Shown: positions 18,374 to 62,100 of the stretch, piece after piece
Layout: the number at the start of each line of letters is the position of its first letter
How positions within the stretch are numbered: position 1 is the stretch's first letter
Origin: Eledone cirrhosa
Lineage: Eukaryota
Direction of reading: 5' to 3'
NCBI GenBank assembly: GCA_964016885.1
Contig: OZ024742.1
Coordinates: 232,996,001-233,060,000, forward strand
Length of the DNA stretch: 64,000 nucleotides
The notes under the pieces: model-generated
The model's database searches: none
Seen by the model: the letters and a program-made list of their open reading frames with translations, nothing else
Told to the model about the DNA's origin: nothing
Translations under genes and position numbers: made by a program

Positions 18374-18410
<37 letters not shown>

Positions 18411-24681: not shown

Positions 24682-24749
24682 CTATTGAGTAATTAATTTC
24701 ATAAATTAAAATTTGTAACATTTCTGCGAAATATATATATAGTACATTC

Positions 24750-27709: not shown

Positions 27710-29053
27710 CTGAAAAGAAAAAAAAAGTAATTTATTACGTTTTAGTAAATTAAAACAATAGTTTTAATCAAATAAATAACAATTCACAGAGACTTTATAA
27801 TTTTTAGCATGTTTATTTTCTAATTAAGTAATTCGACTGATATTATTTGACTAGAAATGAAAGAGGCTTACAAGAGTTGTGTCAAGGGTTATTGAAAATA
27901 CAACAGGGAAACAATACTTGATGTAGTAACACTAGAAATTTAATTAGTTAAAATTACAGTTATGAGAAGAATTGTTATCTAAATGACTAATTTTGATTAA
28001 AAAGAATAAAGGAGACAGAAAATGTATGAAGCCTATCACATATATCATCTTTTTAATGTCCAGTATTTTATACGTGCATGGGTTGGACAATATAGATATT
28101 TATATATGTGTGTATTTGTATATGTACATATGTATATATACGTGTGCAGCATCTGTGTGTGTTTGATGGTCTCAATGTTTTTGCTTTACATTTGAAACTG
28201 CTGGTGGCAACATTTGTTCATGTCTCACATAAATAAAAGTCTTAATGCTCAATGGTAGTGGTTTGATGTGCAAAAAGTGGTTTGTCTCAAAAAAAAAAAA
28301 AAAAAAAAAGATACAGGTTGACATCAGGAATGGAAACTGACAGTAGAATATGGCCTCAAAAAGTTTCATCCAATTCATGTTAGCATTGAAAAACAGACAA
28401 AAATAATGAAGCTGATGATGGTTATGATATTATATACAATATGTTATATTAATAGTTCAACATTTTGTATTGATACATATTAATATACTTTACATAGTTC
28501 GAAGTTAAGACAATGCTAGTAAAAAAAATTGAAGTACAATGGTTTGCAAGCACAAAGAATGAGTTTGTAGGGAAAGAATGGAGACAATGGAGGATACTGT
28601 TCAGTCATATCAATAGCAATCCCTCTAGGGGTGGTGACACAATAAAACACATCCAATCTACACTGTAAAGTGGTTTATGCAACAAAGCTGGACAGCTTTT
28701 CTGTTGTGTATACCAAATAATGAAAATGCTCGGCCAGTGGTGAGAAGAATCATGGAGTGTAGCAAAACAAAAGACCACAGTGGATAGGGAGATGAAGGAC
28801 CATAACTGCTTCTATTCAACCTATGCCAACATGGAAAAATGGACATAAAATGAGGATGATAATGATGAACACATTCCATGTTCAGCAAATTCAGGTTTAG
28901 AAAATGTGTTGCAGAATATTTCAATAAAAAATTGTTTTCAATGACTTTATATTTGAAGCGTCTTCCATTACTACATACTGTATCAAGCCACTTCCATATT
29001 ATTGAGTTCTTGTAGCCATTAATACTGACCAGAGTCTTAGCCTTGGTCACTCT

Positions 29054-29363
29054 TGTGGGTATGGTGTGGTGTGCGGTGGCCGGAGGCTGGGGAGTGCTCG
29101 ACCGGAAGAGTGCTTGACCGGAAGGGTGCTTGGCCGGAAGGGTGCTCGACCGGAAGTGCCAGCAGGTCTGCCTCTCTCTAGGGTGGTCAGCGAACGTGGT
29201 GGACGTCAGTCTTGGAGCTCCCGGTTAACGAGTTGGATTGTACGCACGTGGGAGAGGAGAAACCAGCCATTGGATTAGTGGTGCTGGCGAAAGTGGTAAG
29301 TGAAGTAGCTTTTTCTAACCACAAGCTATTTCGGTACTGGAAACTGAGATCTTATTGAACAAG

Positions 29364-29395
<32 letters not shown>

Positions 29396-32300: not shown

Positions 32301-33267
32301 GGAACATACCTCTCAATGGTCGACTGTGGACCGGGACGGATGGCGATGAAGACGGCCAAGGAAATCACGCGGACGTTGAGAGAGGTGTTCTTGGAGTGGG
32401 GCCCTGTGGACGAACTGCTGATGGACAACAGTGCAGTGTTCCGCTCGGAGGCGCTGAGGGAGATGCTCGATGGATGGAAGGTGGACCGTTTCTTCAGAGC
32501 AGCGAACAGGCCGAGCGGAAATGGAATCGTGAAGCGACACCACCGGACGATCAAAGCAATGGCGGAGTGGGGCCATATCTCACCAATGGAGGCAGTGTTC
32601 TGGTACAACATGTCCCCTCGGGTGGGACAGGTTGAGGAATCGGTGTCACACAGAGCAGTATTCAGATACGAGTGGTGGCACCCGCGCACGCCACCACAAC
32701 GGCCAGTGGAGAGAGAGAATGCATTCATGCAGGTGGGCGAAGAAGTCTGGGTTAAGCCCCCAGATGCATGTTGCACATCTCAATGGGGAAGGGGAACGGT
32801 GACGGCCGTAAATTCCCAGAACAATGTGTCCGTGGACGGAGTACCACGTCATGTCCTGGATGTCCGTAGAATCACTGTGTCAACGGACTCCGAGGAAGAG
32901 GAAACCCAAAGTGCCGCCCCAACACTGCGGAGATTGCAAAGAAGTCGCAAACCACCAACCTGGACAGCAGACTTTCATATGCAGCAGGACGAGGGGGAAA
33001 TTGATCCTTGAGATCTGGGGGGCATGTGGGTATGGTGTGGTGTGTGGTGTGTGGTGGCCGGAGGCTCGGGAGTGCTCGACCGGAAGTGCTTGACCGGAAG
33101 GGCCAGCAGATCTACCTCTCTCTAGGGTGGTCAGCAAACGTGGTGGACGTCAGTCTTGGAGCTCCCGGTTAACGAGTTGGATTGTATGCACGTGGGAGAG
33201 GAGAAACCAGCCATTGGATTAGCAGTGCCAGCGAAAGCAGTAAGTGAAGTAGCTTTTTCTAACCACA
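29054..33267 (+). mobile_element. Full-length, decayed Ty3/Gypsy LTR retrotransposon (antisense to BRCA2)
   Basis: LTRs 29054-29323 and 33025-33267 (TGTGG...CCACA); G-rich PPT before the 3' LTR; flanks actct/tctct. Gag CCHC (CFRCQGTHIARDC), protease LVDTG, RT YIDD, RNase H (CDAS..E..TDS) and integrase (HHCC, VDV..MDN) in PR-RT-RH-IN order, with stops and frameshifts. Confidence 0.95.
29470..33011 (+). pseudogene. gag-pol of the Gypsy element, interrupted
   Basis: Consecutive ORFs 29538-29816, 29817-30215, 30216-30974, 30934-32037 and 32055-33011, separated by stops and frameshifts. Confidence 0.9.
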
Positions 33268-35960
33268 TCTCTCATCATCATCATCCTCATTTTATGTTCC
33301 CTTTCCATGCCATGGTTTGGATGGGCTGTCACAGTCTGAAACCAAATGGGCCAAAGTGACCAATCCTGCTTGTCATGTTCCATATTTGGCATGGTTACTA
33401 CAGTAGGATGCCTTTCCTAACACCAACCACATTATACGATGTATTTTTTTGTGATATCACTTTTATTTTAAACATTTCACATTACAGTGTTGACAGGGTG
33501 CATTTTATCAAGGTACCAACACTAACACTTTACAGTATGTAATGGATGGATTTTATTGTAGCATCAAAACTTAAATTTATTCTTCCAAGTATTAAACTTC
33601 CCTTGTAGTTATTCAAGGAATTTTCATCCTCTGTTTAAAACTGTGTACTAGCCACAAACTTTAGTTTGACATTCAAAGACTTTCAGTACATGATCCATTG
33701 ATTTGAAGTTCTTGAAATATTTTCTCTTTAGTGGATCTCCATTACCCTTTTCATCATCATTACCATTTATATTCATTTTTTTCAATGTTGGCATGGGTTA
33801 TAAATGAAAATGGTATTAGCAAGGGCACACTTTACACAAGTAGATAAGTGATTCATAAGTGGTACATTAAATTATCTAATAAATACCGTATCTAAGCAAC
33901 TATCTTTGAAGGTCAGTTAATTTATTATTTATGGTCTGATTTCTAAACTTAATCCCTCTGACAGTTGTATTGAAAATTCATATTTTTGTTCATCTATCAC
34001 TCACAGTGAAACTTTCATGCTTACTTTCTCTTATAGTCAGTCAGTGGATACAGTATGGCTAAATAGCTAAGAAGTTCACTTGCTATCTTGAGTAAGTGCC
34101 TTTTAACATAGCCTTTGATTGAATCAAGCCTTGTGAATGAAATTGAGTAGACAGAAACTGCATGGAAACCCATTAGATGGACTGTACTTGTAATTCAAAG
34201 GGTCAGCCTTGTCACAATGAATCTCACTGAGAATTATGTTAAAGGTACATGCCTCTGGAATACTCAGCCACTTACACATTAATTTCATGAACAGGCTGTT
34301 CTGGAACACTCATCTTTGAAACTGGTGGAGGTCCATTTACCAGTTAGTAAGTGTGAGTGTATATATATATATTTTAGGCACACTTTCCCCTAATGAGTAG
34401 TAATTCAAAACACTATGTATCTTTTCTCAATGTTGAACCTGATATCAAGCAATACATCTAACATAACTTCCATTACTCCTCTCTTCTACTCTTTTCTTCA
34501 AGTTTGTCATCTATTTTAGTCTAATTTTTTGTACTAACAAAAGAACATTCTCGGTAGAGCTGTCCTGCTAGAGAAAGGGTCGCATGTGGTGGATAGCGAT
34601 GCGGTCACCAGATATGATGGCTAGTTGTGATATAAGTGGGCAACTGCTGCACGAATAAGAAACCCTGGACCGATAGTGGTAAACTACTAGGGGGGAGGGA
34701 GCAATGAGTGACACCTGTAGCTCCCAAGAAAACTCTCACAACCCAGTGACATAGCTACAATGTCACGAGTAAAGGCCACTTCTAAAAAATCCTAGTCTTC
34801 GTGGGTTTGACAAAGTACCAGAAAGGTGAGTGGCACGAATAAGACCACTGAAACTGAAACTACAATATGATGAGGAAACCAAGAATGAAGAATTATACTG
34901 CATCATCCTTTGCGTGTGATAACAAAGAGTGCATTCAGGCCTTAGGTAGATTGCAGTCTCCATCTCATGTTGCAAAAACTAGTGATAATCCTGTGACCAG
35001 TCCTGGAAAACTCTGATAGTCTTTTCGCCCCCTTTCACCCTACTTTTTCTACAAATCTCATTGTTTCCAACTGGTTTGGAGGTCCTACTTGTTGATAACA
35101 CACAGAAAAAAATAAGTCACAGGAAAAACTCAAGGGAGGGGAGGTTATACAGGAAAAAGTCGATTGCCAGAATCTTGGAGGTTAGATTAGTTAACAGCAC
35201 ACAAAAAAAAAGTTTTCCCCACTGAAATCGAGTAGGATATTCTATAAATTTACTGCTGTTTTTAGCAGGTCAAGCAATCACAAAGACCCCATCATTTTCT
35301 TGACTTGAGGAATGTAGTTTTGAAAAGCAAGAGTATTGGGAAAAGTTTTGTACAGGGCCCTAAAAATATGAAATACTAGGATGGTGCGTGAGAGTGATTT
35401 GGGAAACAACACAACATGCATATTAAATGGGTTATAATAAAATGATACATAACAAATTGGCAAATTTTGAGATTAATACAAAAATAACTATAGCAATGCA
35501 ATTGATTCTTTAGCTTTTAAAAAAGAAATATAACCTCCAGGATGCTATCACGAATGACTGATATCAGAGTATAAACAGCTTAGCATCTGCATAAGGTACA
35601 ATGGTATAAAGAATTTGTTGTTTGAAAGCAATGAGGATGTTACGTTGAAGCCATTTGTTACTGGTATGTATACTGTGTGTGTTAGCTAAGATGAAAGAAA
35701 CTATTGGTTGATGTGCACAGCAGACACTACTTTTATTGTGCACATGTCCCAAATAAAATACAGTTGAGTGCTTTTGTCAGCTGAAACACTGAAAATTCTC
35801 ACAACCAATGTTCTAAACCAATCAAAATACTCAGAGTAGAGAGATGTTAGCAGGAACAAAAATATATTTTTACCACATTAATTGTATGAGTAAAGAACAT
35901 TAAGCTTTACTTATAAAATTATCCTATAAAATAAGAAAAAAAAAATGAAATTGTTTTTAC

Positions 35961-36042
35961 CTCAGTGCTGTTTGATAAATGCTTGGTGAGAGTAAGGATT
36001 GGAAAGAACAGTCCTTCTTGTTAGAACTAAAATCATGTAAAT
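35961..36042 (-). CDS. BRCA2: BRCA2 exon (YLHDFSSNKKDCSFQSLLSPSIYQTAL)
   Basis: ttttag|ATTTAC...CTGAG|gtaaaa; 82 nt, phase 1-2, the phase change needed between the flanking exons. Confidence 0.7.
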
Positions 36043-36409
36043 CTAAAATAAATAAATAAAATAACAAAACAATAAAAAATAATCGTGAAAATAATTAACT
36101 GAAACAAAAAAAATCTAATGTATATGGTTGTTCGCAATTGCATGTAAAAAAAAAAAGACAGTTTGGAAAATATATATATATATATATATGTACATACATA
36201 TATGTATACAGACGTATACATATATATATGTGTGCATGTATGTATATATATATATATATATACATACTACTGTACGTCTGTATACATATATGTATGTACG
36301 TATACATGCTTATATTTAAGTAACAGCCGTACTAAGAGTGAGAAATGAAATTTTGTTTCATTTTTTCCGTTTATATATATATACATACATACATATATGT
36401 ATGTGTATA

Positions 36410-37895
36410 CCAGGTGTACCAGCAACATTGTCCACATTTGAACCTGTGTCTCAGGAATGCTTAAAGATAACAATGGAATTGTCAGGGGGCTTTCTACAAC
36501 CACTGGAATCTATTTTGAGCAAGAAAAATGTTGGTTATTCTCCAAGCTAACCAGAAGAATTTGTGATGAAGTTGATCATAGTGGAAAATGTCATTTTCAT
36601 AAATAATTAACCATAGCTCAGGATTGGGAGCTCATAAATGATAGGAATAAAATTTGAATGGAAGCTTAAAGTTTTGTTCCAAAATGCCAAATACAATACT
36701 GGAGAAAATCCTACTTGTTAGGCATCAATAGTTGCTCCTCTTTTGGCAATGACTTCCTCAACCCTTTTTCTGACTGCACTACAAGCTTTCTTAATGAATT
36801 CCTCATCAATGTCTCCCTCCCAAGACCTATGGATGGAGATTTTGAGGGCTTGCAGGTTACTTTGGGACTTCTCACGAGCTTATCTGACCAGTTCATTCCA
36901 GATGCTGAAGTTTAATGGGTTCAAATCAGGTGATGAAGGGGGACCAAGTGACGTTATCCCAAACTCATCCCTGAGCAATTCTTGAGCCACTGCACAAGTG
37001 TAACAAGGAGCTCCATCTTGTTGGAATGTAAACTTGCAATCCTTAGTAATCTTGTTGGGGTTTCCCTCGTCTCTTGACTCAAGATATTCAGAAAGTGTCC
37101 AGGTCTTTACACCTTTCAAAACCTGAACATAACAAACTCTTGTCTCAAATATGATCAATGGCATCTTTTTGCCATCACAGGCCATGCATGCGAAAATTAA
37201 TTTGGCAGGGTTTTTGCACCTGAAAATGACACTTTTGTCCCTGTTGTGAAGATCTGAAGCCAGAACGTGGCTGTTGCGTCTGTTTGTATGCGTCTCTTGG
37301 GTGAAATTCTTCTCATCTGTGTAAAAGATCAATCTAGGATTACGTTTCACTTTGTTCAAGATGACCTTCGCCCTCTCCAACCTTCTAACCTTTTGTTCTG
37401 GAGTAACAAGGTGCTTCACAAGTCTCACGTACAATTTCATTTTCAAGTCTTCTGTCACTGCTCTTTGAACTGTCATAGCTGAAACCCCTCCCTCTAGTGC
37501 CAAGCGCCTTATGGATTGAATTGGATCGCTTCTTATTGATCTCTTCAGCTCCAGATTGAAATGATCCATTATTCCCTCTCTTGATGGTTCTTAAATGGAC
37601 TTTGGAGATGGAAGCCATAGAATGAATGTTGGTACCATTACTAAAGGCCTGGATGATCTTAGCCCGTTCAACATTGCTCAATTGGGAAGATATTGTGAGG
37701 CTGGCACAAAACAATTTCAGCCTGTTCTTTTCTAGCTAAATATCTCAATAGGTATTTCACTGATACTTGCAAAATCTGGTGTCAGTATGGCCAGATGTCT
37801 TATCTGGAAACATGGAAAATTGCAAATTGATTAGTTTATTGGTTAAAATTTTTTTAAAGAATTTGTGTGTGTGACAATTTTGCTGTTACAACCGG
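36410..37895 (-). mobile_element. Tc1/mariner DNA transposon (maT/DD37D-like), decayed
   Basis: Imperfect TIRs ccaggtgtaccagcaacattgtc and (reverse complement) ccggttgtaacagcaaaattgtc, flanked by TA. Transposase ORFs 37385-37714 and 36880-37569 with FYTDEK, FQQDGAP and PPSSPDLNPL. Confidence 0.9.
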
Positions 37896-38012
37896 TATAA
37901 GAAATGTAAATCTGAGATTTTTGAATATTAATAATAATATTCAATTCATTCACAATTATGCAAACAGCCTCTTAAGCCATGTGAGTAGAACAACCTTGTC
38001 ATTCTTGCTCTT

Positions 38013-38068
38013 GAGTAGGCAAACACAAATGTTTCTGGGTGATTACCCGTCATCAGTACCTTATACTC
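38013..38068 (-). ncRNA. Minimal type I hammerhead ribozyme motif (one stem II mismatch)
   Basis: GAGU(AUA)AGGUA-CUGAUGA-CGGGU AAUC ACCCA-GAA-ACA UUUG UGU-U-UGCCU ACUC. Confidence 0.6.
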
Positions 38069-38289
38069 GGATTTGCATTTCTTGTATTCAGCCATGTAGA
38101 GCGATAAAACTATTTGTTACTTATTTGACTATGGCAAAGCCATCTATTAATCGCTTATATACATAAAACTGACTAGCCTATCTGCTGATATGCAAATTTG
38201 GCTGATCAGTAGGTCTGCTAATATGCAAATCAGGCCGATCATTAACTGTATATTCCAGAAAATATATATTTTCACTAGTTCTGTCTGGT

Positions 38290-38720
38290 CTGGTGTAGTT
38301 GTGTTGTACTGTCCTTATATTAGCAGGTTGATATTATAGGGCTTGAAATTTTCCAGCATTAAAATGCATGTTGTTGTCCTCAGCCCATTTGTATATGGCA
38401 TCCAGATCTTGTTGCAAACAAGTAGCATCAGCAGAGCTAGTGAGAGATGTTATATGTACTACTGTACAAACAGTAGTGGTCCCAAGACAATTATTGATGT
38501 TTCCTTTAAGAGGGCCGTTGGCTGCAACAATCTGGCTTCTGTCTTTTAAAAGTTATGAAGCCACTCACCTACTTTTCCAGTTATGCCGAGTCTGTGTAGT
38601 TTGTGACACATTATTTCATGGTTGACCGTGTCAAAGTCAAGATATATCTTCCTTTGTGGAGTGCTGTAGCATCAAAAAATTCCCCTGGCTTTGTTATTTG
38701 CATGTGCCTCAGTGGGGGTG
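38290..38720 (-). mobile_element. Decayed CR1/L2-like LINE RT fragment
   Basis: Reverse strand shows LGPLLF.., LQQDLD..W...N.MHFN..KF remnants. Confidence 0.6.
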
Positions 38721-39727
38721 TGAAAACACTTTTGTACTATTCATTCAGTATCTCCCTTATCCCTTGAGAATCCTTGGTCAATGAGCTATTTTTATGGAAA
38801 AGTAGACCAATCTTGCAGTGTATTGAGGCAGTCTCTTTTGTTTTAATATTTTCTATGGCCCCGGCTGTTCTCACTGCCCTCTCCTCATGGGAAAGTTTCA
38901 GTGCCTGTTTCAGATAAGGTTCCTTCTTGTTCTTCTGTTGTACATTCAACAGGTTTGAGATCTTTGTTCTTCGTTTCATAAGGATTTTCCTGTCTCCTGG
39001 AATAACATTTTTGTGTTTGTTGGCCTTTTTCTTCCAGGAGAAACTTACAGTATTTGGGTTGTATTGTTGTCATGAAATGTTGAAATTGGTGTCTATTGCA
39101 TCTGTATATGCATACTGTCTTCTCTTTGTCGGGGCAGCATGCACAAAATCAGCATACCTCCGGGACAGTGACTCCATGTGCTGTGTCATATGTTTGTATT
39201 GGTTTGGAGTGGAGAATTTTGAGCAAACCTACAGCCTGTTCCCGCTCCTCCATGCAAGCAGGTCCGCTCTCTATATATATACATATATAAACATATATGT
39301 ATGTACACACACATATATATATATATATACATATACACATATATATATATCAGAATGGAGGCGGTAAAAACCAGTTAGACCATTATTCACCAGAGTACTC
39401 GATACATGGGGTAGTAGAATGGGTAAGATGAAAAAATTCGGGACCCCAATGGCTGAGCTCCAGCTAGATCCGAACTCGGATATACACAGTAAAGTGGACG
39501 TGTAGGCGCCACAGAAAAAAAGCACCCAGCACTCACTGTAAATGAGGTTGGTGTTAGGAAGGGCATCCAGCTATAGAAATCAAGCCAGAATCAGTTCCCA
39601 TATGAGCAAGGCATGGTCAGCCGACCAGACACTGCCCACAACAGGACAACCCGTCTAACCCATGCTAGCGTAGAAGAACGGACGTAAAACGGTGATGATG
39701 ATGATGATGATGATATATATATATATA

Positions 39728-40272
39728 TGGAAGAAGTTTAGGGAGCTGCTTCCTCTGTTGACAAAGAAGGGTTTCTCCCTGCGTACGAAAGGATGGTTAT
39801 ATGCTGCCTGTGTGAGATGCATGATGCTGCATGGTAGTGAGACATGGGCAGCAACTGCAGAAGATATGCGATGGCTGGAGAGAAACGAAGCAAGTATGCT
39901 CCGTTGGATGTGCAATGCCAATGTGCATGAACGACCAAGCATAGACGAGTTGAGAAAGAAACTGGGTATAAGAGGGATAAGTTGTGGTGTGCAGGAGAGA
40001 AGGCTGAGATGGTATGGACATGTGATGCGCATGGAGGATGACCGCTGAGTAAAGAAGTGCCAAGAAATCCAAGTAGAAGGAAGACACAGTAGAGGAAGAC
40101 CATGAAAAACATGGGCGGAGGTGGTGAGAGCAGACCTCAGATCACTGAAAATCACCGAGGAGATGATGAAGGACCGTTACAAGTGGAGAGATGCTGTGCT
40201 GAATAGGACCCGTCCAACCCTTGCAAGCAGGGAAAAGCGGACGTAAAATGATGATGATGATGATGATGATGA
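39728..40272 (+). mobile_element. RTE LINE 3' fragment (same family as 22410-22970)
   Basis: WKKFRELLPLLTKKGFSLRTKG...RLRWYGHVMRM; near-identical 3' tail. Confidence 0.92.
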
Positions 40273-40286
40273 TATATATGTATATA

Positions 40287-40337
<51 letters not shown>

Positions 40338-40361
40338 GTATATATACATATATGTATATAC

Positions 40362-40392
<31 letters not shown>

Positions 40393-40463
40393 TATATATA
40401 TATACACATATGTATATATACACATGAATACACATATATATACACATATGTATACATATATAT

Positions 40464-40498
<35 letters not shown>

Positions 40499-40601
40499 TA
40501 TATATTATATATATATATATATATACACATATGTATATATACACATGTATACACATATATATACACATATGTATACATATATATACACATATATATATGC
40601 A

Positions 40602-40632
<31 letters not shown>

Positions 40633-40640
40633 AATACATA
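40273..40640. repeat. Compound (AT)n/(AC)n microsatellite
   Basis: Directly visible. Similar tracts at 36170-36310 and 50257-50315. Confidence 0.95.
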
Positions 40641-41231
40641 CATACATAACTTTACAGTGTGTGCTGGGGGCTTTGGTGGGAGGGGTATGTGGGGATTAGG
40701 GAGGTGTGTGTTAGGGGCGGAGTTAGGATGTGGAAGGTGTATGGAAGGGGAGGTGAAGGTGAAGGTGGTGCATTCCAGATGTATGTTTCAGTCTGTGTTC
40801 ATATATAAATTTACAAATATTAAAATGCTACCACCACTGCCATTATCATCATTATTATGATGCATTGTCTGCTTCCACTACTATGCATTGCTTTAATGAT
40901 ATCCATGGTTAACTATAGGTGGGTGGATGGTAGAGCTCCAATCTCTTCCATAGCGGCTGTTAGACCATGTCAAGATTTCAACATAGAATACAAAGGACCA
41001 GAACATATATTACAAGCTCTCTTGTCTGACATGCCAACAATTCCACCAGTCTACCACTCTAATCTTGTACTTTATTTAGCAACCCTGAGAAGATGAAAGG
41101 CAAAATTGACCTTGGTGGGATTTGAACTCATAACATAAAGAACTAAAATATATACCAAAAGGCATTTAGTCCAATGTTCAAATGGTTTTGTTAATTTGTC
41201 AACAACACACAAAATAAATATATTTATTTAC

Positions 41232-41312
41232 AAATAGGATCTGTAACCAAGGGATGAATTCTCTGCCGATCTTCAGTTTCATGTGAAGTAGAAGGAGTCC
41301 ATATAGGAGAGC
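41232..41312 (-). CDS. BRCA2: BRCA2 exon (SSPIWTPSTSHETEDRQRIHPLVTDPI)
   Basis: tttcag|GCTC...ATTT|gtaaat; 81 nt, phase 1-1; resembles human STPDGTIKDRR...LEPI. Confidence 0.75.
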
Positions 41313-44729: not shown

Positions 44730-47700
44730 TCCTTTTACTATTTAGTTGTAAAAGTTTGTTATCTTCCTGTTGCAAATTTTCAAATATACTTGGATATGGG
44801 TCAATCTCATTTTTTTCAGCCAAATTTCCTATTTGGTTTGATTTTTCTGATAATATATTGCTGTGTGATATTTCAGGGTTTATTAAATTCTCTTCACCAC
44901 TGTTCTCTGAGAGAATCTGTCTAGCACATTTGACAGATTTCTTTGAAACAGTTACATTTTTGCCTAAAGCTGTTTGAAATGCCAGAATATGTGGGTTTGA
45001 GTCAAGCTGGTTGTTTTTACCATTATCAGCCAAATCACCCTTTATTTCAGATTCGTTTGATTTACCTGATATTATATTTTTGTGTGATATTTCCTGCTTT
45101 GATACTTGATTTATTGAATTCTCTTCATTATTGTTTTTTGAGAGAATTTCTTTAGCACATTTAACTGACTCTTCTGAAACTGTTACATTTTTGCCTAAGG
45201 CTGTTTGAAATGCCACAAAATGTCCAGCTGTATTACTACTATAAGCAGAAGTAGATTTTTCAGATTCATTCTGTTTGGAGACATGATCTTTCCCTGAAGT
45301 CACTTGAACTGTATTACTTTTGATAAAGTAAAATTCCTTTTCCATCTTTTCAACAGCAGATGTCATGGCTTGTTCCTCTGAGATATCATCATTCATTTGG
45401 TTGTCAACAGGAATATCATTAAAAGCCTTTATTTCTTTACTAGCATTATGAATGTTTGGCTTAATACACATTTGTAATGGTATAAGGGATGGTTTATTAT
45501 CATCTGGTCTGAAGGGCTGGTTTTCATATATTTCCATTGATTCTGCTAATATATCATCAGAAATATCAGAATTTTTTGATATTATGCTCTCATAATCCTC
45601 TTCTTTTCCACTGTAAACTGATGTTGATTGTGGATTGTCTGAGGTGCATCTTGATCTTTTGCAAACTGAGTTTATGTTTATATCAGATTCTTCTGATAAG
45701 TTTCTTTTTTTACTCTCAGATGTTTCAATTGGATCAGAATCATTACCTTCTGAAAAACTTTTCTGAAATTCATCTAATAATTGGTAGCATTGTTCAGAAA
45801 TGTCTTCATTTGGGGAAATTATTGACTTCTCTTCCACTAAACCTGATGTATTATTAGCAGGTGCCATCGTAGCTATTTCAGTTTCAGAAGAATTTAAATC
45901 AGTAAGCAAAAGATCACTTACAACATTTTTCTCAAGAGATTGATTCATTTCTTTTACTGAATCAAGATTTAATATATTTTCTACTTTCAAATTAGTGTGA
46001 GGTTCAAGATGTAATTGTTGGCTGTCGTTATTAGTAGCACAAACATTATTGCAATGGTTATTATCGGATGCTATGTTAGAAGATACTCTTATACATGAAG
46101 ATGAAATTTCATGAGTTTGAAGGTTTGTAATACTAGGTCTAACAATTTTGCTTTCAATTTCTAATAATTTGGGGGTTTTACTCAATGTTTCACCATTTTC
46201 ATCAACAATGCATTTAAAATCATCAGATGGGAAATGTTGAATTTTTTCTTGTAAATATTCATTTGTTGTTGAAGACACTCTTAAATGATTAGTACTATCA
46301 ATTTTACTTCCACCTAAATCTCTAGATTCTGTGACATATTCTTTGACATTTTGTTCCTCTGCTTCATTAATTATATGTTTCTCCATTAGATTAATAATTG
46401 GAAAAGTGCTTTTTGATTCATATTTAGCACCAGCTATGTCTCTATCTGTGTTCTCTAAGCATGAGATTTGTTTTTCAACAGGAGAAATAGTGTTGGCCAT
46501 CTGTTCTTCACAAAATATATTATTGCATTCATTATCATTAATAGAGTTTAAACTAAATTTATTATGAAGTAAGGCAGATTTATTAATTATTCTGGGAGAT
46601 TTGAATGGACAGAATCTTTTTGGCAATTGTTTTTCAGAAATTGAATTAAATGTAAGTTTTCTTTTAAGGCTTCTACTTTCTTCAAGCTTCCTTTCCTTAA
46701 TATTCTGCATATTGCAAACCAATTCAAGAGACTCCTTATCACTAGTTTTTGTGGAATTTATTGTTTTAGGAAATAAAATAGCTTCTAGATATTGCTCATT
46801 ACCAGTCATGAATTGTTTAGCCTTTTGTAAGCTCTGTTCCTTTATTGGAATTTTTCCTCCTTTGGCTGAAGAAAATCCTTGGAAATCTGGAACAGTTTCA
46901 TTAAAGTCATCTACTAAAGTTTGTGCCTTTTGTAAGCTCTGTTCCTTTATTGGAATTTTTCCTCCTTTGGTTGTAGAAAATCCTTGGAAATCTGGAACAA
47001 TTTTATCACAATCATCTACTAAACTTTGTGCCTTTAGTAAGCTCTGTTCCTTTATTGGAATTTTCCCTCCTTTAGCTGTAGAAAATCCTTGGAAATCTGG
47101 AACAGTTTCATTAAAGTCATCTACTAAACTTTGTGCCTTTTTTAAACTCTGTTCCTTTATTGGAATTTTTCCTCCTTTGGCTGTAGAAAATCCTTGGAAA
47201 TCTGGAACAGTTTCATTAATGTCATTTAGTAAACTTTGTGCCTTTTGTAAGCTCTGTTCCTTTATTGGAATTTTTCCTCCATTTGATGTAGAAAATCCTT
47301 GGAATTTCTCAACAGTTTTATTACAGTCATCTACTAAACTTTGTGCCTTTTGTAAGCTCTGTTCCTTTATTGGAATTTTTCCTCCATTTGATGTAGAAAA
47401 TCCTTGGAATTTCTCAACAGTTTTATTACAGTCATCTACTAAACTTTGTGCCTTTTGTAAGCTCTGTTCCTTTATTGGAATTTTCCCTCCTTTAGCTGTA
47501 GAAAATCCTTGGAATGTCTCAACAGTTTTATTACAGTCATCTACTAAACTTTGTGCCTTTTGTAAGCTCTGTTCCTTTATTGGAATTTTCCCTCCTTTAG
47601 ATGTAGAAAATCCTTGGAATGTCTCAACAGTTTTATTACAGTCATCTACTAAACTTTGTGCCTTTTGTAAGCTCTGTTCCTTTATTGGAATTTTCCCTCC

Positions 47701-49278
47701 TTTAGATGTAGAAAATCCTTGGAATTTCTCAACAGTTTTATTACAGTCATCTACTAAACTTTGTGCCTTTTGTAAGCTCTGTTCCTTTATTGGAATTTTC
47801 CCTCCTTTAGCTGTAGAAAATCCTTGGAATGTCTCAACAGTTTTATTACAGTCATCTACTAAACTTTGTGCCTTTTGTAAGCTCTGTTCCTTTATTGGAA
47901 TTTTCCCTCCTTTAGCTGTAGAAAATCCTTGGAATGTCTCAACAGTTTTATTACAGTCATCTACTAAACTTTGTGCCTTTTGTAAGCTCTGTTCCTTTAT
48001 TGGAATTTTCCCTCCTTTAGCTGTAGAAAATCCTTGGAATGTCTCAACAGTTTTATTACAGTCATCTACTAAACTTTGTGCCTTTTGTAAGCTCTGTTCC
48101 TTTATTGGAATTTTCCCTCCTTTAGCTGTAGAAAATCCTTGGAATGTCTCAACAGTTTTATTACAGTCATCTACTAAACTTTGTGCCTTTTGTAAGCTCT
48201 GTTCCTTTATCGGAATTTTCCCTCCTTTAGCTGTAGAAAATCCTTGGAATGTCTCAACAGTTTTATTACAGTCATCTACTAAACTTTGTGCCTTTTGTAA
48301 GCTCTGTTCCTTTATTGGAATTTTCCCTCCTTTAGCTGTAGAAAATCCTTGGAATTTCTCAGTTTTATTACAGTCATCTTCTAAAGTGTGTGCCTTTTGT
48401 AAGCTCTGTTCCTTTATTGGAATTTTTCCTCCTTTGGCAGTAGAAAATCCATGGAAATCTGGAACAGTTTCATTAAAGTCATTTAGTAAATTTTGTGCCT
48501 TTTGTAAACTCTGTTCCTTTATTGGAATTTTTCCTCCATTTGTTGTAGAAAATCCTTGGAAATCTGGAACAGTTTCATTAAAGTCATCTACTAAACTTTG
48601 TGCCTTTTGTAAGCTCTGTTCCTTTATTGGAATTTTTTTACCTTTGGCTGTGGAAAACCCTTGGAATTTCTCAATAGTTTCCTCACTGTTAATCCTTAAA
48701 TGTTCTGTCTTCTGTAAGCTTTCTTCATTTATCTGAATATTTTGCACTTTAATATTTTGATCTCCATTTTCAACCTTTTCAATGATAATTTTTTTCTGAC
48801 CTTGCTGCTTATTGCTATCATCTTGTTTAATATCATCTGATAATTTAGTATCTAACTCATCATTGAAACTCTCAGAAAAATCTTCTGATGATTGCCAATA
48901 TACTATCTGGCTGGCTGTAAAATGATCTTCAACAGAACTATTGTGTTTAGAAATATCTTTGAACTGTTTGCAGTAAGGAAAATCAGTTTTGTTATATATT
49001 AAAATATTTTTACACTTGTTATCTTCATTAGGCCTCTTTGTGACAATACCTGAAGAAACAGAAGCCTGTGTTACATTGTTCTGGGGTAAAGAAGATTTAT
49101 TTTTAGAAGATCGTAATGAATATTTGTGAGGAAATATATGGGGAGTCTTGTGGATTTTACCAATTGCTGCTTCATGCATTAGTTTCTCTTTATGATAAGT
49201 TAGAAAAGGCATTTGTTGTTTGTCTGTGATCTGATCAACAGAAGTAGAAAGATTTTCTTCTGAATGTAATGAGATATT
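44730..49278 (-). CDS. BRCA2: BRCA2 BRC-repeat exon (equivalent to human exon 11), 4,549 nt
   Basis: 1514-aa ORF extended upstream to ttctag|AATATC; donor AGGA|gtaagt; phase 0-1. Contains 18 tandem and 2 dispersed BRC motifs (F-x-T-A-x-G-x-K...S-L-x-K-A). Confidence 0.95.
44904..45219 (-). repeat. Two dispersed BRC repeats (AFQTALGKNVTVS..SVKCA..IL), about 230 bp apart
   Basis: Both match the BRC consensus F-x-T-A-x-G-K-x-V-x-V-S-x-x-S-x-x-x-A and lie within a local duplication. Confidence 0.85.
46810..48680 (-). repeat. Coding tandem array of 18 x 105-bp (35-aa) BRC repeats
   Basis: The plus-strand anchor gaaaatcc recurs at 46871, 46976 ... 48341 (105-bp period), then 48443, 48548, 48653. 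Unit FQGFSTAKGGKIPIKEQSLQKAQSLVDDCNKTVET. Confidence 0.97.
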
Positions 49279-50355: not shown

Positions 50356-50441
50356 CTTATCTCTGTATATATCGGGAAACAAAGAATGTTCTTCTGTTAT
50401 CAGTGGGGCATTAGTATTCTTGCTTTTTTGTTGCAAAACAC
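50356..50441 (-). CDS. BRCA2: BRCA2 small exon (GVLQQKSKNTNAPLITEEHSLFPDIYRDK)
   Basis: tttcag|GTG...GATAAG|gtatag; 86 nt, phase 1-0, links the two large exons in frame. Confidence 0.8.
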
Positions 50442-51513: not shown

Positions 51514-52335
51514 CTTCTACAGTGTCGTTTGTTTGGACAGCAGTACAGCCTTCCTCATTGTTGTTAGTTTGAACAGAGCAGTTTTCCACAGGGTCATCAG
51601 TTTGGACAACAGCACAATCTATCACAGTATTGTTAGTTTGGATAGCAGCACAAGTTTCTACAGTGTTGTTAGTCTGGACAGCAGCACAACCTTCTACAGT
51701 GTTGTTAGTTTGATCAGCAGTACAACCTTCTGCAGTGTTGTTAGTCTGGACAGCAGTACAGCTTTCTACAGTGTTGTTAATCTGAACAGCAGCACAATCT
51801 TCTAGAGTGTTGTTAGTCTGGACAGCAATACAACCTTCTGCAGTGTTGTTAGTTTGGACAGCAGCACAACTTTCTATAGTGCTGTTAGTTTGGACAGCAG
51901 CACAACTTTCTGCAGTGTTGTTAGTTTGGACAGCAGTACAGCTTTCTACAGTGTTGTTAATTTGGACAGCAGCACAACCTTCTGCAGTGTTGTTAGTTTG
52001 GACAGCAGCACAACCTTCTGCAGTGTTGTTAGTTTGGACAGCAGCACAACCTTCTGCAGTGTTGTTAGTTTGGACAGCAGTACAGCTTTCTACAGTGTTG
52101 TTAATTTGGACAGCAGCACAACCTTCTGCAGTGTTGTTAGTTTGGACAGCAGCACAACCTTCTGCAGTGTTGTTAGTTTGGACAGCAGTACAGCTTTCTA
52201 CAGTGTTGTTAATTTGGACAGCAGCACAACCTTCTGCAGTGTTGTTAGTTTGGACAGCAGCACAACCTTCTGCAGTGTTGTTAGTTTGGACAGCAGCACA
52301 ACCTTCTGCAGTGTTGTTAGTTTGGACAGCACCAT
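51514..52335 (-). repeat. Coding 36-bp minisatellite, about 23 x 12 aa (AAVQTNNTAEGC)
   Basis: Plus-strand unit ttagtttggacagcagcacaaccttctgcagtgttg, with degenerate copies on both sides. Confidence 0.95.
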
Positions 52336-53757
52336 TTTCTTCAATATTCTTGATTTGGACAACAATATTGTCCACAGTATTACTAGGGCTCCTAAAACAG
52401 CCTTCAACAGTTTTATTGTTTTGAACAACATTACTTTCCACAGGGTTGTTGGTTGGGATTACATTGTTTTTTGCAGGCATATTGTTGTTGTTGTTGTTGT
52501 GAACAATAGATTTAACAAGATCAGATGTAATGTTAGGAAATATTGGGTTGTTAGAATCAGAGCAGTTATTTTCTGTTGAGTTATTTGTTGAGAAAGTTTG
52601 CATCTTGAACGAAAATTTTACTGCAGGTGATGACTGATGGATTTGACTTGCAGTAGGATATGAAAAACGTTTAGTTTTCCTTTTTAATCTATTTTTCTTG
52701 CTTAAAAAAGGAGTGGTTGTTGTTTTATGTTCCAAAGTTACATTTGGTTCACAAGAGATTAATAAACTATTAAGTTGTTTGTTTTCTGTGTTTTCACACT
52801 CTGAATAACTGTCAACTTTTTGTCTTTCAGAAGTCCTTTCACAAACACCATCAACCAATTTAACTTCTAACAAAGTTTTAACAGAATCAAATTTTTCACC
52901 ATGTTTTTCTTGACTATATATATCATTTAAGCAACCCTCAACAGTTTTTAAATTATTTTCACTGGTTGAACTGTGTTGCTTTGACTGTATTTTCTTTGCA
53001 TGTTCTAGATTTTTGTCAATATCTAAATCCACAACATTCCTAGATATTTCACAAGTATCCACTGGATTATTTAATGGTTTGGAAGGATTTTGCTCAAGGG
53101 TTGCAGATTCGAATGAATTATTAAGATTTGAGCTTTTACAACAGTTTACATTTTCTTCGTTCATTTTAAATTCATTTTTATCAAAATCTAAATTTACTGT
53201 AACTGGACTATGATTTACATTATTCTTAAGGGAATTATAATCTGGAGTCAGATCACCTGATACTTTAGTAATACAGTGTATATCAGTTGGATGGAATATC
53301 ATTGTTGTATCTTCTGAAACTAACTCACTCTTAAGCTTATCCGATAGAACTGGTGATAATATATCAGAAAAATGAACACTCTTATGCAGTGATGTCTGTT
53401 GTTTATTTTTAATTAAAATAGAATGTAGAAGAGAACTATCTTCTTTCTTAATACTATCAACTGGAGGAGAAGACATGTTTATTGTTTCAGTTGTGTGAAA
53501 AAAAAGAGTTGGATAACCTTTAGAATCATCATTGTTAATAGTTTCAAATAATACAGGGGAAGATGTTTCTGGAGAATATTTTGAGAGATCAGTAGTAGTT
53601 AGGCTTTTATCATTGTCATTCAACTCAGTCTGGATTGTTGTAGACAATGTAGCAGAGTCCTCTAATTCAGATGTCTCTCCATTTGGAGAAAATAAAGCAC
53701 GGGCAAAACATTTTGATTGTGTAATTTCACTCATGTTTTCTTCATCTTTACACACAC
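51514..53757 (-). CDS. BRCA2: BRCA2 large exon (low complexity, with 12-aa repeat tract)
   Basis: 751-aa ORF; tttcag|GTGT...GAAG|gtaata; 2,244 nt, phase 1-1. KRKTKRFSY resembles human KKTNKFIY. Confidence 0.88.
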
Positions 53758-57600: not shown

Positions 57601-59044
57601 TCATTAATAACTAACTATTAATTTGTTCAATTATATCTGAAAGAGTCTCTTCTAATTAAGACAACACCAGGTCAATAACCAACTATTTAGTCTACAAGAG
57701 GTTGTCAGAGAAACTTAACCCTTTTCATACCAAACTGCCTCAAACCACCCCTGGTTCTATGATACAAAGCTGTTTCTCATCATCATCATTGTTTTTACAT
57801 TGAATTTTCCATGTTGGCAGGGGATGGATGGGATATTTTCAGACTACATTTTACAGCCAGATGCACTTCTTAGATTCAATATTATGTGAGATAAAGCCTT
57901 TACTGCGAAAATTCAATAGTAAATATAGAGTAATGTAAATGTTATAGGGTTAAACCTTTTAGTTGCTTCTTACATGCAGGGATATGTTATACCTATTCTA
58001 TTATCATACTTATCTAAAATTCTTCCATTGTAATTTTATGTAAGAACATTAGCTTAAGAAGGACTTAGTTATTTTATAAAATTCCTCCAAATTCTTGGTT
58101 ATTTAAAAAAATTACTTAAAAATTGTAAGCAGTATATTTCATTAGAAATATGATACTATCATTTAATTTAACCCACCCACGCAAACTCCTCAAAAGAGGT
58201 CTCCCTTTTCAACTAAATGCTATGATACTGCACTACTTTTGGAGAAGTCAGAAAATAGACAAAAAGTAGACAGAATTAGAGAAACGAGATGGCTAAAATA
58301 TTGTGTGCTAGGCTGTAGTGCATATATGCCCTTGTGCACTGCAAGCAGTGCACTGAGCTGGTGCTTTTCTTGGTTTCATGGCATGAAGCGACTGAGAGTA
58401 CAAGACTTTCCCCTGAACAGGACACTAATCCATTGCAGGGTTAAACCCCTAGCTATTGCTGGTACTCATTTTCAAGTGAGTATACTGGAGCAACGTGAAA
58501 TTAAGTGTTTCGCTCAAGAACACAACACGCAACCCAGCCTGGGAATCAAACCCACAACATTATGATTGTAAGTCCAACACCCTTACCACTAGGCCATGTG
58601 GCAAGGCTGTACTACATCACATAACATCTACAGGTGATGATGAGATTATCTTTGATGATTCACAACAAGAAAGGGCTACAACAATTAAACACAACTAAGA
58701 CTAATTTCATGTTCACATCCAATGACACCAGATCAACAGTTGCTAACAATGTCATTTGTTGCTAGACCCCAGACTAAACATGTATTCCAGCTGTGAACAT
58801 CATATCTTACTTTTCAGGTGTCGTGTATCTAGGACTTCATTTATTTTCTAAAGTTCATAGAGTGTCATTTGAGAGGGATTTTGCTGCTTTCTTTAGTTGA
58901 TTGAGCAATTGCATAGTGACTCTTTTGTTGGTTCAAATAATTTTGTTTTTTCAGTCAGCACTTGCTTTGAAATCTACAGCCCACTAAGATTATGTACAAA
59001 GTACATTTACAGTTGAATTCAATTTATTTAATATCATACATTAC

Positions 59045-59176
59045 CTTGAACCGGGCTTCCAGTGAGTAGCAACAAATCTGAGGTTTCGTAGTTGAAAATG
59101 GTGGTGTTACTAGAAGGTACATTCTTTCCAAGCAACTTTTGGAGTGATAATTTTACAAACCAGTTAGAAGCTGATT
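59045..59176 (-). CDS. BRCA2: BRCA2 N-terminal exon (PALB2-binding-like SNWFVKLS motif)
   Basis: tttcag|AATCAG...GTTCAAG|gtaatg; 132 nt, phase 1-1; ESASNWFVKLSLQK resembles human LNWFEELS. Confidence 0.75.
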
Positions 59177-62100
59177 CTGAAAAAGTAAATAAGCAAAAAA
59201 AAAAAAGAAAACAACAAAGATAATATGAAACTCTATCTAAATAAAAAGACAAAACAAAACAAACCATTCTGATTATGGGACACTTAGTTTTTCAGTAGTA
59301 ACGATGGTAATGGAAATCCCTGAACTCTACTGCAATGAACATGCCAAAATAGACTGGTCGTTGTCATAAAATTCTACAAATAAATATTACAGTTCTGGTT
59401 GTAGGTGCCAGTCAGTTGAGAGCATATGTAAGGTGGAAGGGTCGATAGTGTTAAAATACACACACATATACACCAGGTCCGAACACAGAGGAGCCAAACT
59501 TCCACTACCACCACCTCCGCCTCTCTCACCCTCTCCATCTCTCACTATTATGAGCAAATGGGGTGCTACACACTGGCTGCCCCACGGCACCGGCAGACTG
59601 AATAGAAAAGGCGTTTCTCTAGAGAATGGTGAGGGAGATGTACTGGAAGAGCCATTCCAGCTCGTGAGGCTCACACCTGCAGCTAGCCATCTCAGCGCCT
59701 ACAGTGGTGAGTAGGGAGATGGCCCTAGGGCCATGGACACCAGAAAAGACAAAAAAGATGTCAGACTAGATGTAACTGCATGATGAGGTAACCATGTCAT
59801 TATACAAGAAAAGATGAAAGAAAACACATTACCAGGAATACAGGCAAAAATATAATAAAGACTGGATGATAAGGAAATCATAACAGTCTATAGTTACTAG
59901 ATTAAGATAATACAAACAAATGACTAAGAGGGTGAAATGGTGTTAGTGAGACATATGTGGCTTTGAAGCCTGGGCAATATAATATTTACATGGGTAAACA
60001 CAGACACATATACATCATCATCATCATTATTTCATTTTACGTCCGCTTTTTCCCTGCTTGCAAGGGTGGGACGGGAACTGATTCTGGTTTGATTTCTACA
60101 GCTGGATGCCCTTCCTAACACCAACCTCATTTACAGTGAGTGCTGGGTGCTTTTTTGCCGTGGCACCTCCACGACCACTTTGCAGTGGAATGATATGGAC
60201 CCCAGTCCTATCATCTCATTTCTACAGCTGAGTAAACTGGAGCAATGTGAAATAAAGTGTCTTGCTCAAGGAAACAACACATCACCCGGTCTGAGAATTG
60301 AACTCACAACCTTTCGATTGCAAGGCCAATGCTCTAATCACTAAGCCATGTGCCTCCATCATCACTATTTTTACATTTGCATTTCAGTTGGCATGGGTTG
60401 GATGAAGCTTTCTGTGAGGCAATGTTCAAGAGCTGGATGTCCTTCTTGACACCAACCTCTGTTCACACTGAACTGCTGAGCTGTAGGACATAAACACACA
60501 TATATACATACTCTACATCAGAAGTTCTCAAACCTTTTGGGCCACCACCCTCCTCATGACCATGTAATACCCTCAGCGCCTCCTGATATATATAATATAT
60601 ATATATAATCATCATCATCCCCATTTAACGACCACCTTCCACGCTAGCATGAGTTAGATGGGTTGTCCCATTTGAAGCTGGTTGGGTCAGGTGACCGTAT
60701 CCTGCTCATATAGAACTGTTTCTGGCTAGATTTCTACAGCTGGATGCCCTTCCTAACGTCAACCGCATTTACAGTGTGTGTATATGTATGTGTGTGTGTA
60801 TCATCATCATCATCATCATCATCGTTTAACGTCCGTGTTCCATGCTTGCATGGGTTTGGACGGGAGTTTTCCCACTTGAGGCAAGAGTGGTTGTCTTGCT
60901 CGCATAGGACTGTCTGGCGGATTTTCTACAGTTGGATGCCCTTCCTAACACCAACCACATTTACAGTGTGGGGCTGGGAGGTTTTTACCGTGTTGCCTAC
61001 ACGGCCACATTACAGCGTGGACTGTCTGGCAGGTTTTCTACAGCTGGATGCCCTTCCTAACACCAACCACATTTACAGTGTGGGACTGGGACGTTTTTAC
61101 CGTGTTGCCTACACGGTCACGTTACAGCGTAGAAAGACAAACACCAACCACATTTACAGTGTGGGACTGGGACGTTTTTACCGTGTTGCCTACACGGTCA
61201 CATTACAGCGTGGACTGTGTGTTTTTTTTTCGTGACACCTACACGATCTCATTTGTTTCGGCCTGGATTTTGTGGCACCAACATAACTTTACATTGAAAG
61301 GGGCGGTGTGGATGGGGTGGTGGTGGTGGGACGGGGGTGTATTTTGTTAGAGGGTTTTACTTTGTATTTAGGTAATGCGGGTCTTCTCTGTTACTGAGTA
61401 CCGCCAAAGGTCTCGGTCCAGTGACATTGTCTTGGAGAGGTATATATATATATATAACATCCAGTCCTAAATAAATGAGGTCGTGTAGGTGTCACAACAA
61501 AAAAAACACACAGTCCACGCTGTAATGTGGCTGTGTAGGTAACACGGTAAAAACCTCCCAGTCCACACTGTAAACGTGGTTGGTGTTAGGAAGGGCATCC
61601 AGTCGTAGAAAACCTGCCAGACAGTCCTATACGAGCGAGATGACCAATCTTGCCTCAAGTGGGACAATTCCCGTCTAAACCCATGCTAGCGTGGAAGATA
61701 GACGTTAAACGATGATGATGATGATGATGATATACATATATATATATATTTATATATATATATATATATATATAAATGGAAAAAATGAAACAAAATTTCA
61801 TTTCTCACTCTTAGTACGGCTGTTACTTAAATATAAGTATGTATACGTACATACATATATGTATACAGATGTACAGTAGTATGTATATATATACATACAT
61901 GCACACATATATATATATGTACGTATGGGTTTACCAAATATTTATTATAATGCTCAGTGTGTTTGTAAACAAACAAACAGCCCGAATTAAGCCGTACAGT
62001 GTTTAGCAACCATCGTTGTTCTTTGTTCAACACTGACAAAGGAACGATGTACTAGTTTTAAGCTTATTAGCTATCGTCAGCACCATATACCTTCTTGCCA

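Follow-up and report, generated by a model that had tools for sequence, protein, structure and literature searches.

Two questions are raised by this locus of the octopod Eledone cirrhosa: how a BRCA2 gene came to carry 18 nearly identical BRC repeats in tandem, and whether so long an array does more for RAD51 than a short one. We have analyzed the window that contains it, a stretch of 64,000 nucleotides (contig OZ024742.1, positions 232,996,001 to 233,060,000). The explanation that we consider probable is that this is an octopod BRCA2 whose tandem repeats likely dock RAD51, that the array likely derives from an older octopod one, remodelled in this lineage through unequal crossing-over or slippage, and that little functional gain is to be predicted beyond a larger RAD51 buffer.

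The locus is an intact octopod BRCA2 gene with an established exon order. Four octopod BRCA2 proteins compared by tblastn match collinear exons from the N-terminus through the last exon, and in the whole genome PF00634 and PF09169 each match solely the BRCA2 locus (both searches giving lower bounds), the PF09169 match consisting of two exons of this gene. C-terminal to the repeats lies the BRCA2 DNA-binding domain (helical domain and OB1-3); its exons are collinear with, and 68-90% identical to, the Octopus sinensis counterpart, in which Pfam identifies helical, OB1, OB2 and OB3 domains. The first coding exon falls past the window end and the final exons sit in neighbouring stretches; the encoded protein is estimated at roughly 3,500 aa. 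The features within the window are as follows.

1538..41312, minus strand: downstream BRCA2 exons (41312, 36046, 27732, 24705, 23339, 15707, 11830, 7168, 3890, 1690), encoding the helical domain and the beginning of the OB folds
44730..49278, minus strand: large BRCA2 exon of 4549 nt with all 20 BRC motifs; phase 0 in, phase 1 out, AG/GT, phases fitting both neighbour exons
44905..44979, minus strand: dispersed BRC motif 20, FQTA ... ILSE
45136..45210, minus strand: dispersed BRC motif 19, FQTA ... ILSK
46801..48663, minus strand: tandem array of 18 BRC units, each 35 aa or 105 bp (unit 3, 34 aa)
48667..48765, minus strand: half unit just upstream of the array; it has the helix part but lacks FxxA
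50356..50441, minus strand: likely micro-exon of 86 nt; weak protein match, canonical splice sites, fitting phases
51514..53757, minus strand: upstream large BRCA2 exon, bearing a second coding minisatellite
59031..59183, minus strand: N-terminal BRCA2 exon with an NWF motif

The array is enclosed by a stop-free minus-strand frame of 1536 aa (44668-49278). Splice ends (AG/GT) and compatible phases were established for the junctions near the array, namely those of the three exons around it and the next acceptor. The NWF motif resembles what we take to be the PALB2-binding site. The second coding minisatellite spans 51512-52331 (36 bp x 22.9 copies by Tandem Repeats Finder).

The same program places the BRC array at 46820-48680, with a period of 105, 17.8 copies, 94% matches, 0% indels and a score of 3052; its Phe codons run from 48657 (first) to 46875 (last). 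A motif script found 18 tandem units and 2 dispersed motifs, the units being spaced by 35 aa throughout except for a single spacing of 34. A reading made from the sequence alone had described a BRCA2 gene with these 18 plus 2 repeats (about 20 in total, one unit of 102 bp) and a half-repeat upstream, and it holds on every one of these points: PF00634 matches 19 stretches of the window (371 bits, E 5.8e-114), PF09169 and the octopod exons agree, and the half unit is present, its FxxA part absent. The weak Pfam hits to other families had 0 passing stretches and were regarded as artefacts of the repeats. That reading also named FxxA as the RAD51-binding motif of BRC repeats, and 12 of the 18 units carry it; in the others the key alanine is replaced, giving FxxS in four and FxxT in two. 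The second tetrad (two hydrophobic residues, any residue, then D, E or Q, 17 aa past FxxA) was found in 16 of the 18 tandem units and one of the two dispersed motifs, and ten tandem units have both elements. Against the consensus Fx[ST][AG]xGx(12)[ASV], as quoted in PMC10684384, 12 tandem units and both dispersed motifs match, and the remaining six fail at the alanine alone. The centre of the array is nearly identical and its edges are diverged: units 4-12 show 0-2 differences per 105 nt, whereas units 1-3 and 13-17 are 4-20 nt apart from other units. Constraint on the unit can be read from its variants, though their numbers are small: codons 1-24 have 9 synonymous variants over 14.3 sites and 13 non-synonymous ones over 53.3, and codons 25-35 have 1 over 6.7 and 11 over 24.7.

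Such uniformity raises the possibility that the array is real but that its length is mis-assembled or is merely one allele among many. The nine central units, 0-2 nt apart, would invite this; none of the contigs listed spans the array; and array length is known to vary within T. brucei and within Drosophila species. Nevertheless, the window contains zero N, the units can be told apart by their variants, and read depth fits the assembled copy number. The depth of repeat unitigs plotted against assembled 31-mer multiplicity gave slopes of 0.95, 1.01 and 0.83 in three of four sequencing runs, for 13 repeat-region unitigs taken from 32 of 215 pieces; run X4 (depth about 2-3) was omitted, and the three runs come from one sample, which may be the source sample of the assembly. 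These slopes lend no support to gross over-assembly; the array is real, and we regard an error in its length, or its being just one of many length alleles, as very unlikely. Length polymorphism among individuals is likely and is compatible with our main reading. It is still less probable that splicing removes many units from the mRNA and leaves a protein with fewer and variable repeats. Of the 15 O. sinensis RefSeq isoforms listed, 13 are indeed shorter by 1-4 units than the longest, but most of their joints fall in sequence that is identical on both sides, as is expected from short-read misplacement or from allele length differences. In addition, AGGT, which a canonical GT-AG skip of whole units requires, occurs once in the array, and AGGC occurs 18 times.

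The history of the array is visible in other octopods. An array with the same 35-aa period is found in the predicted BRCA2 of O. sinensis (XP_036360663.1), O. vulgaris (CAI9725762.1) and O. bimaculoides, and in less regular form in Argonauta hians. The same dispersed motifs lie about 530-560 aa downstream; motif 19, about 555 aa past the array, is kept. In the three Octopus species the array is headed by the same half unit as in E. cirrhosa. Across the five species the arrays contain 7, 9, 12, 12 and, here, 18 units. Units of the other octopods are 59-65% identical within each species and have positional orthologues between species, while mean identity here is 88%. In a tree built on 29 columns, the 18 units form one clade against 40 units of the four other octopods (support 98/88), from which we infer that in this lineage copies of a single unit type took the place of the former array, likely through unequal crossing-over. 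In the second minisatellite, too, the copies are homogenised in this gene, whereas those of O. sinensis and O. vulgaris have diverged. The gradient of identity along the array, the higher identity than in relatives, the single clade and the parallel behaviour of this minisatellite together argue for turnover. An origin of the array within this species is ruled out by the 35-aa arrays of four other octopods: E. cirrhosa re-homogenised and lengthened a pre-existing array. The earlier suggestion that the lineage built its own array is thus correct for the near-identity of the units but not for the array, which is older. No squid or cuttlefish BRCA2 was among the matches of our protein searches, which is not evidence of absence.

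The units resemble known RAD51 ligands. The best PDB match of a single unit is human BRC4 on RAD51 (1N0W, E 0.0083), and both comprise an FxxA hairpin plus a helix. When two adjacent units were modelled together with a RAD51 core used as a stand-in and present in two copies, the complex scored 0.71, the best control 0.31; it passed a mark that 51 out of 78 solved complexes, and 2 out of 108 mismatches, attain. The model runs share at least 79% of contacts, with partner pLDDT of at least 56; Phe6 and Ala9 contact RAD51 copy 1, and residues 41-44 contact the same surface of copy 2. The stand-in comes from another organism, and 204 of 234 aligned residues match the RAD51 exons of this genome. A structure prediction of this kind, proposed in the sequence-only reading, is favourable by score; since a like complex has already been solved, the pass shows likeness only, and the model likely reproduces the known BRC4-RAD51 structure. 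Each unit likely docks one RAD51 monomer. We considered whether the tetrad LVDD had co-evolved with the pocket of RAD51, and dropped the idea. The octopus protein does carry Ile where human RAD51 has Tyr205, and Thr in place of Met251 (Y205I, M251T), but these sites vary widely: among 46 readable RAD51/DMC1-like frames taken from 80 metagenome loci, only 11 have Met at position 251 and 10 have Thr. No special link between LVDD and RAD51 is therefore claimed.

By analogy with human BRC4, each FxxA unit would insert its Phe and Ala into the self-association pockets of RAD51, the following helix and the LVDD tetrad would supply further contacts, and adjacent units could be occupied simultaneously. 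FxxS and FxxT units would probably bind more weakly, S or T at the key alanine being known to weaken human BRC4 and BRC5 (PMC3136434). Once an exon held two head-to-tail copies whose period is a multiple of three, recombination out of register could alter their number and spread one variant, and selection would preserve the frame and the core motif but be indifferent to the particular count. Trypanosome and mouse data suggest, by analogy, early saturation: in T. brucei at least four repeats repair damage as well as twelve do (PMC3553974), and mice are viable with one BRC repeat (bioRxiv 10.64898/2026.01.07.698272).

It could be argued instead that the long array is adaptive, selected as a high-capacity multivalent store or loader of RAD51 to suit a genome that is large and full of repeats, an oxidative load or the demands of meiosis. 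Genome size here is 3.0 Gb, arrays recur across many phyla, and neighbouring units can be placed on separate RAD51 copies in the model. Repeat number affects RAD51 relocalisation or foci (PMC3553974) and plasmid integration (PMC2408642) in T. brucei and, in mouse cells, resistance to oxidative stress (bioRxiv 2026.01.07.698272); linking four moss repeats tightens binding about 100-fold over that of a single repeat (bioRxiv 2025.03.19.644124). These effects make a functional gain possible, such as the changed recombination capacity suggested in the sequence-only reading. On the other hand, close relatives manage with 7-12 diverged units, one third of the units here carry S or T at the alanine, as in the changes that weaken human BRC4 and BRC5, and a minisatellite of the same gene that is not BRC is equally homogenised. 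We consider the adaptive explanation unlikely, and favour turnover with little gain.

Nor is the array exceptional. The sequence-only reading held tandem near-identical arrays to be best known from T. brucei, but among 170 proteins, picked by likeness to the array and so giving no prevalence, 18 others have a run of at least 10 units at 70% or more mean identity, and 16 others have at least 20 repeats. Arrays comparable to this one or longer occur in predicted BRCA2 of clams, a marine worm, Hydra, insects and a sea urchin, with total repeats of 37 in Owenia, 32 in Mya, 28 in Dreissena, 25 in a leafhopper and 15 in Hydra. The runs are of 32 units with a period of 33 aa in Owenia fusiformis (CAH1778041.1), 22 of 41 aa in Mya arenaria (XP_052797202.1), 17 of 38 aa in Dreissena polymorpha, 15 of 41 aa in Hydra vulgaris (XP_065669169.1), 21 of 33 aa in Macrosteles quadrilineatus, 15 of 37 aa in Dryococelus australis and 14 of 38 aa in Strongylocentrotus purpuratus. 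These seven are gene predictions in which assembly error is possible; like the array here they are tandem and homogenised (71-92% mean identity), but each has its own period and their cores are only 35-43% identical to our units, which points to separate expansions. Uniqueness among animals is ruled out. The tandem state is not universal either: in 115 BRCA2 proteins collected through their DNA-binding domain, mostly from birds and reptiles, the repeats always lie at least 76 aa apart. Counts of diverged repeats are lower bounds, since in almost every bird or reptile protein our profile detects no more than 5-6. FxxA is absent from all 15 units of Hydra and occurs in 10 of the 27 repeats of the sea urchin, and, together with the six of 18 units here that lack the alanine, this argues that the count is not tuned for the canonical motif.

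The main by-product of this work is therefore comparative: tandem BRC arrays recur in predicted proteins of invertebrates. In 2008 BRC repeats were stated to be dispersed and degenerate in all organisms except two trypanosomes (PMC2408642), which fails for the predicted proteins of many invertebrates; our literature search, to which subscription journals were mostly closed, found no paper saying so and none on BRC arrays of molluscs, cephalopods, annelids or cnidarians. A bolder proposal, which we rate as doubtful, is that these arrays are a fast-turning selected module, that in six animal phyla or more a single unit was independently multiplied and homogenised to between 10 and more than 30 copies, and that length and the mix of strong FxxA with weak FxxS/T/G units may tune RAD51 storage and delivery. 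If it were true, octopods with 7, 9, 12, 12 and 18 units on one scaffold would form a natural series on why BRCA2 has many repeats, a matter still called unresolved in bioRxiv 10.64898/2026.01.07.698272. Closely related octopods whose units differ in number and in uniformity, together with minimal, almost linker-free periods of 33-35 aa, offer ready constructs for RAD51 occupancy and avidity per unit.

Among known systems, human BRCA2 differs in having eight dispersed and diverged repeats, with the tetrad LFDE in place of LVDD. The MELT arrays of KNL1 (Tromer et al. 2015, PMC4558858) are likewise arrays of docking motifs carried by a scaffold protein, and they too have expanded repeatedly and been replaced as a whole; this is an analogy only, as protein and motif are unrelated. 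Drosophila is another animal in which BRCA2 repeat number shifts by unequal crossing-over: species range from 3 to 11 repeats, and D. pseudoobscura by itself shows 7, 9 or 11 of them (Bennett, Mercer and Noor 2010, PMC2882388). Its repeats are fewer and more diverged, and D. melanogaster BRCA2 lacks the canonical DNA-binding domain that the gene here possesses. A further close counterpart is T. brucei BRCA2, with 15 tandem units, 14 of them identical in the reference strain, in an array thought to grow and shrink through its own homology (Hartley and McCulloch 2008, PMC2408642; Trenaman et al., PMC3553974). Both arrays are head-to-tail, near-identical and recent relative to kin; they differ in period (44 aa against 35 here), and the octopod gene adds 2 dispersed repeats to its 18 tandem ones, has units of three motif types (FxxA, FxxS and FxxT) and has kin that already possess an array. 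The locus is one more case of an already described arrangement.

The tandem array at 46820-48680 of the window has a 105-bp period and 17.8 copies, with 94% matches and no indels, and is enclosed by a minus-strand stop-free frame of 1536 aa in which the Pfam BRCA2-repeat profile (PF00634) matches 19 stretches with 371 bits. A script counted 18 units spaced by 35 aa, with a single spacing of 34. The sequence-only reading had proposed 18 tandem units, two dispersed motifs and an upstream half unit; repeat finding and the script agree with this account, and the array is genuine and was rightly described. Four octopod BRCA2 proteins give collinear matches to minus-strand exons from 59183 to 1538, and such matches extend into the neighbouring stretches on both sides. 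Among the matches listed for the BRC and helical-domain profiles in the 3.0-Gb genome, this is the only BRCA2 locus. The features of the gene are as follows.

44730-49278, minus strand: exon holding the array; its ends are AG/GT, and its phases agree with those of a likely micro-exon upstream and of the exon that follows downstream
555 and 632 aa past the final unit of the array: two dispersed BRC motifs (script)
Upstream of the array: half unit (script)
51512-52331, minus strand: second coding minisatellite, 36 bp x 22.9, with a 12-aa unit and a cysteine in every copy; Pfam gave no match on its exon
30216-33011, plus strand: intronic GC-rich LTR-retrotransposon-like element; stretches that by eye resemble protease, reverse transcriptase and integrase are spread over three frames
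36880-37590, minus strand: intronic 236-aa frame like a Tc1/mariner transposase remnant (label by eye)
L006 (a neighbouring stretch) 9340-9546, minus strand: final BRCA2 exon, ending with an SP site and then an FxxP motif, which we take to resemble the vertebrate C-terminal RAD51-filament site

The length of the array was assessed by read depth in four public runs, compared as contigs, of which X4 was too shallow for a slope. For 13 repeat-region unitigs, drawn from 32 of 215 pieces, depth relative to unique sequence was set against 31-mer multiplicity in the assembly. The slopes were 0.95 (X1), 1.01 (X2) and 0.83 (X3), and are rough because the lower of two flank depths was chosen in X2 (10.9, not 14.8) and the higher in X3 (7.6, not 2.5); in X1, for example, a relative depth of 10.3 was observed against 10.9 expected. 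X1 to X3 represent one sample, perhaps the source of the assembly, and no contig among those listed for the four runs spans the array. The slopes argue against gross over-assembly, short of independent proof.

The published consensus Fx[ST][AG]xGx(12)[ASV] is matched by 12 of the 18 tandem units, the remainder having FxxS (4) or FxxT (2) in place of FxxA. A second tetrad is present in 16 units (LVDD in 14, LLND in 2), and 10 units combine it with the consensus. The best PDB match of one unit is human BRC4 in 1N0W, and the exons of the genome's RAD51 match human RAD51 closely. Since that RAD51 is split by introns, a stand-in RAD51 core (L026, identical to it at 204 of 234 aligned residues) was modelled as two copies with two adjacent units, alongside three controls. 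The model scores 0.71 versus 0.31 for the best control, with contact agreement of at least 79% and partner pLDDT of at least 56; 51 of 78 solved complexes and 2 of 108 mismatches attain the score mark. Each unit is predicted to hold a RAD51 copy of its own, both using one and the same RAD51 surface, with the FxxA Phe and Ala leading the contact. As a like complex is solved, this prediction speaks for likeness and geometric plausibility rather than binding. The six FxxS and FxxT units would bind RAD51 more weakly, by analogy with human BRC5 and an A-to-S change in BRC4 (PMC3136434).

In the genome's RAD51 (L018 and L010; near 337.0 Mb of sequence C1), human Tyr205 and Met251, two residues lining the LFDE pocket, are replaced by Ile and Thr. 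Both positions vary among eukaryotes, and over the 45 residues that open its exon the Thr is the sole difference. Near 11.65 Mb of C1 lies an intronless 419-aa RAD51-paralogue frame (L009:1399-2658, minus strand; PF08423, 134 bits), presumably RAD51B-like and possibly a retroposed gene.

Other octopods carry 12 (O. sinensis, longest isoform), 12 (O. vulgaris), 7 (O. bimaculoides) and 9 (Argonauta, less regular) tandem units, and in each of the four a spacing of 35 aa is the most frequent. The array exon is about 55% identical to those of the three Octopus species and 41% to that of Argonauta, which places the host among the octopods. Units are 59-65% identical within each of these species versus 88% in the window. 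Most Octopus units have positional orthologues that are 83-100% identical; the window's units reach at most 79% identity to any foreign one and group as a single clade when 58 units are placed in a tree (support 98/88, from 29 columns only). Units 4-12 differ by 0-2 nt and flanking units by 4-20 nt, a pattern that unequal crossing-over or slippage in mid-array would give. The 36-bp minisatellite is likewise homogenised here, and its counterparts in O. sinensis and O. vulgaris are diverged, which suggests that the region as a whole tends to behave in this way and that BRC units are no special case. Between units, the first 24 codons vary relatively more synonymously than the last 11; the numbers are small, and they fit a constrained unit core, although the most variable codon is the FxxA alanine. 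Probably the gene encodes a normal RAD51-loading BRCA2: recombination would let its repeat tract drift in length, and selection would guard the reading frame and motif core. The main rival to this reading, an adaptive high-capacity RAD51 store, appears unlikely to us.

In O. sinensis RefSeq (P0001 cluster, P0304-P0317), 15 isoforms are listed, and 13 of them are shorter than the longest by 1-4 BRC units, with the frame kept; read misplacement or allele length variation is the likely cause, and whole-unit skipping could also contribute.

Searches with the array gave 170 proteins, 171 with the window, and repeats were scored by our own profile. At least one repeat occurs in 164 of the 171, at least 20 in 17, and a tandem run of at least 10 units in 28, 19 of these at 70% mean identity or more; since resemblance to the array decided which proteins entered the set, these counts give no prevalence.

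BRC repeats in other BRCA2 proteins (named cases; gene predictions throughout)
Owenia: 37 repeats; run of 32 x 33 aa, 92%
Mya arenaria (P0002): 32 repeats, period 41
Branchiostoma: up to 30 repeats
Dreissena polymorpha (P0003): 28 repeats, period 38
S. purpuratus (P0004): 27 repeats; run of 14 x 38 aa
Macrosteles: 25 repeats, period 33
Dryococelus australis (P0028): 17 repeats, period 37; two 37-aa units alternate as a higher-order repeat
Hydra vulgaris (P0040): 15 repeats, period 41, 92%

Among the arrays found, the window's is exceeded both in length and in homogeneity, and among molluscs the bivalves Mya and Dreissena also have tandem arrays, with different periods. Since periods differ and identity between lineages is only 35-52%, the sequences point to separate expansions. 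Homogenised arrays may lack the canonical alanine (in Hydra 12 FxxG and 3 FxxC of 15); in S. purpuratus, FxxG occurs in 17 of 27 repeats. In the predicted BRCA2 proteins of Lingula and Patiria the repeats are dispersed and lack near-twins. The DNA-binding domain retrieved 115 further proteins, mostly of birds and reptiles, and in all of them the repeats lie at least 76 aa apart. Mya is known for transmissible cancer; our literature search found no paper on BRC repeats and Mya.

That search, with most subscription papers outside its coverage, found nothing on BRC arrays of cephalopods or other marine invertebrates. Two points keep their interest: arrays recur across animal phyla, apparently without having been reported, and the octopod series offers test material. 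Motif definitions, affinities, avidity and a KNL1 analogy are treated in PMC9162458, PMC3136434, PMC10684384, PMC4558858, PMC8121103 and bioRxiv 10.1101/2025.03.19.644124. Drosophila is reported to have 3-11 repeats, attributed to unequal crossing-over (PMC2882388), and mice are viable with one repeat, several being protective under oxidative stress (bioRxiv 10.64898/2026.01.07.698272). In T. brucei, repair with at least four repeats equals that with twelve, and RAD51 foci are governed by repeat number (PMC3553974). PMC2408642 gives 14 repeats for Trichomonas, 10 for Anopheles and 15 for T. brucei, and calls repeats dispersed and degenerate in organisms other than two trypanosomes; 14 of the T. 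brucei repeats are identical, with a period of 44 aa, whereas that of the window's array is 35 aa.
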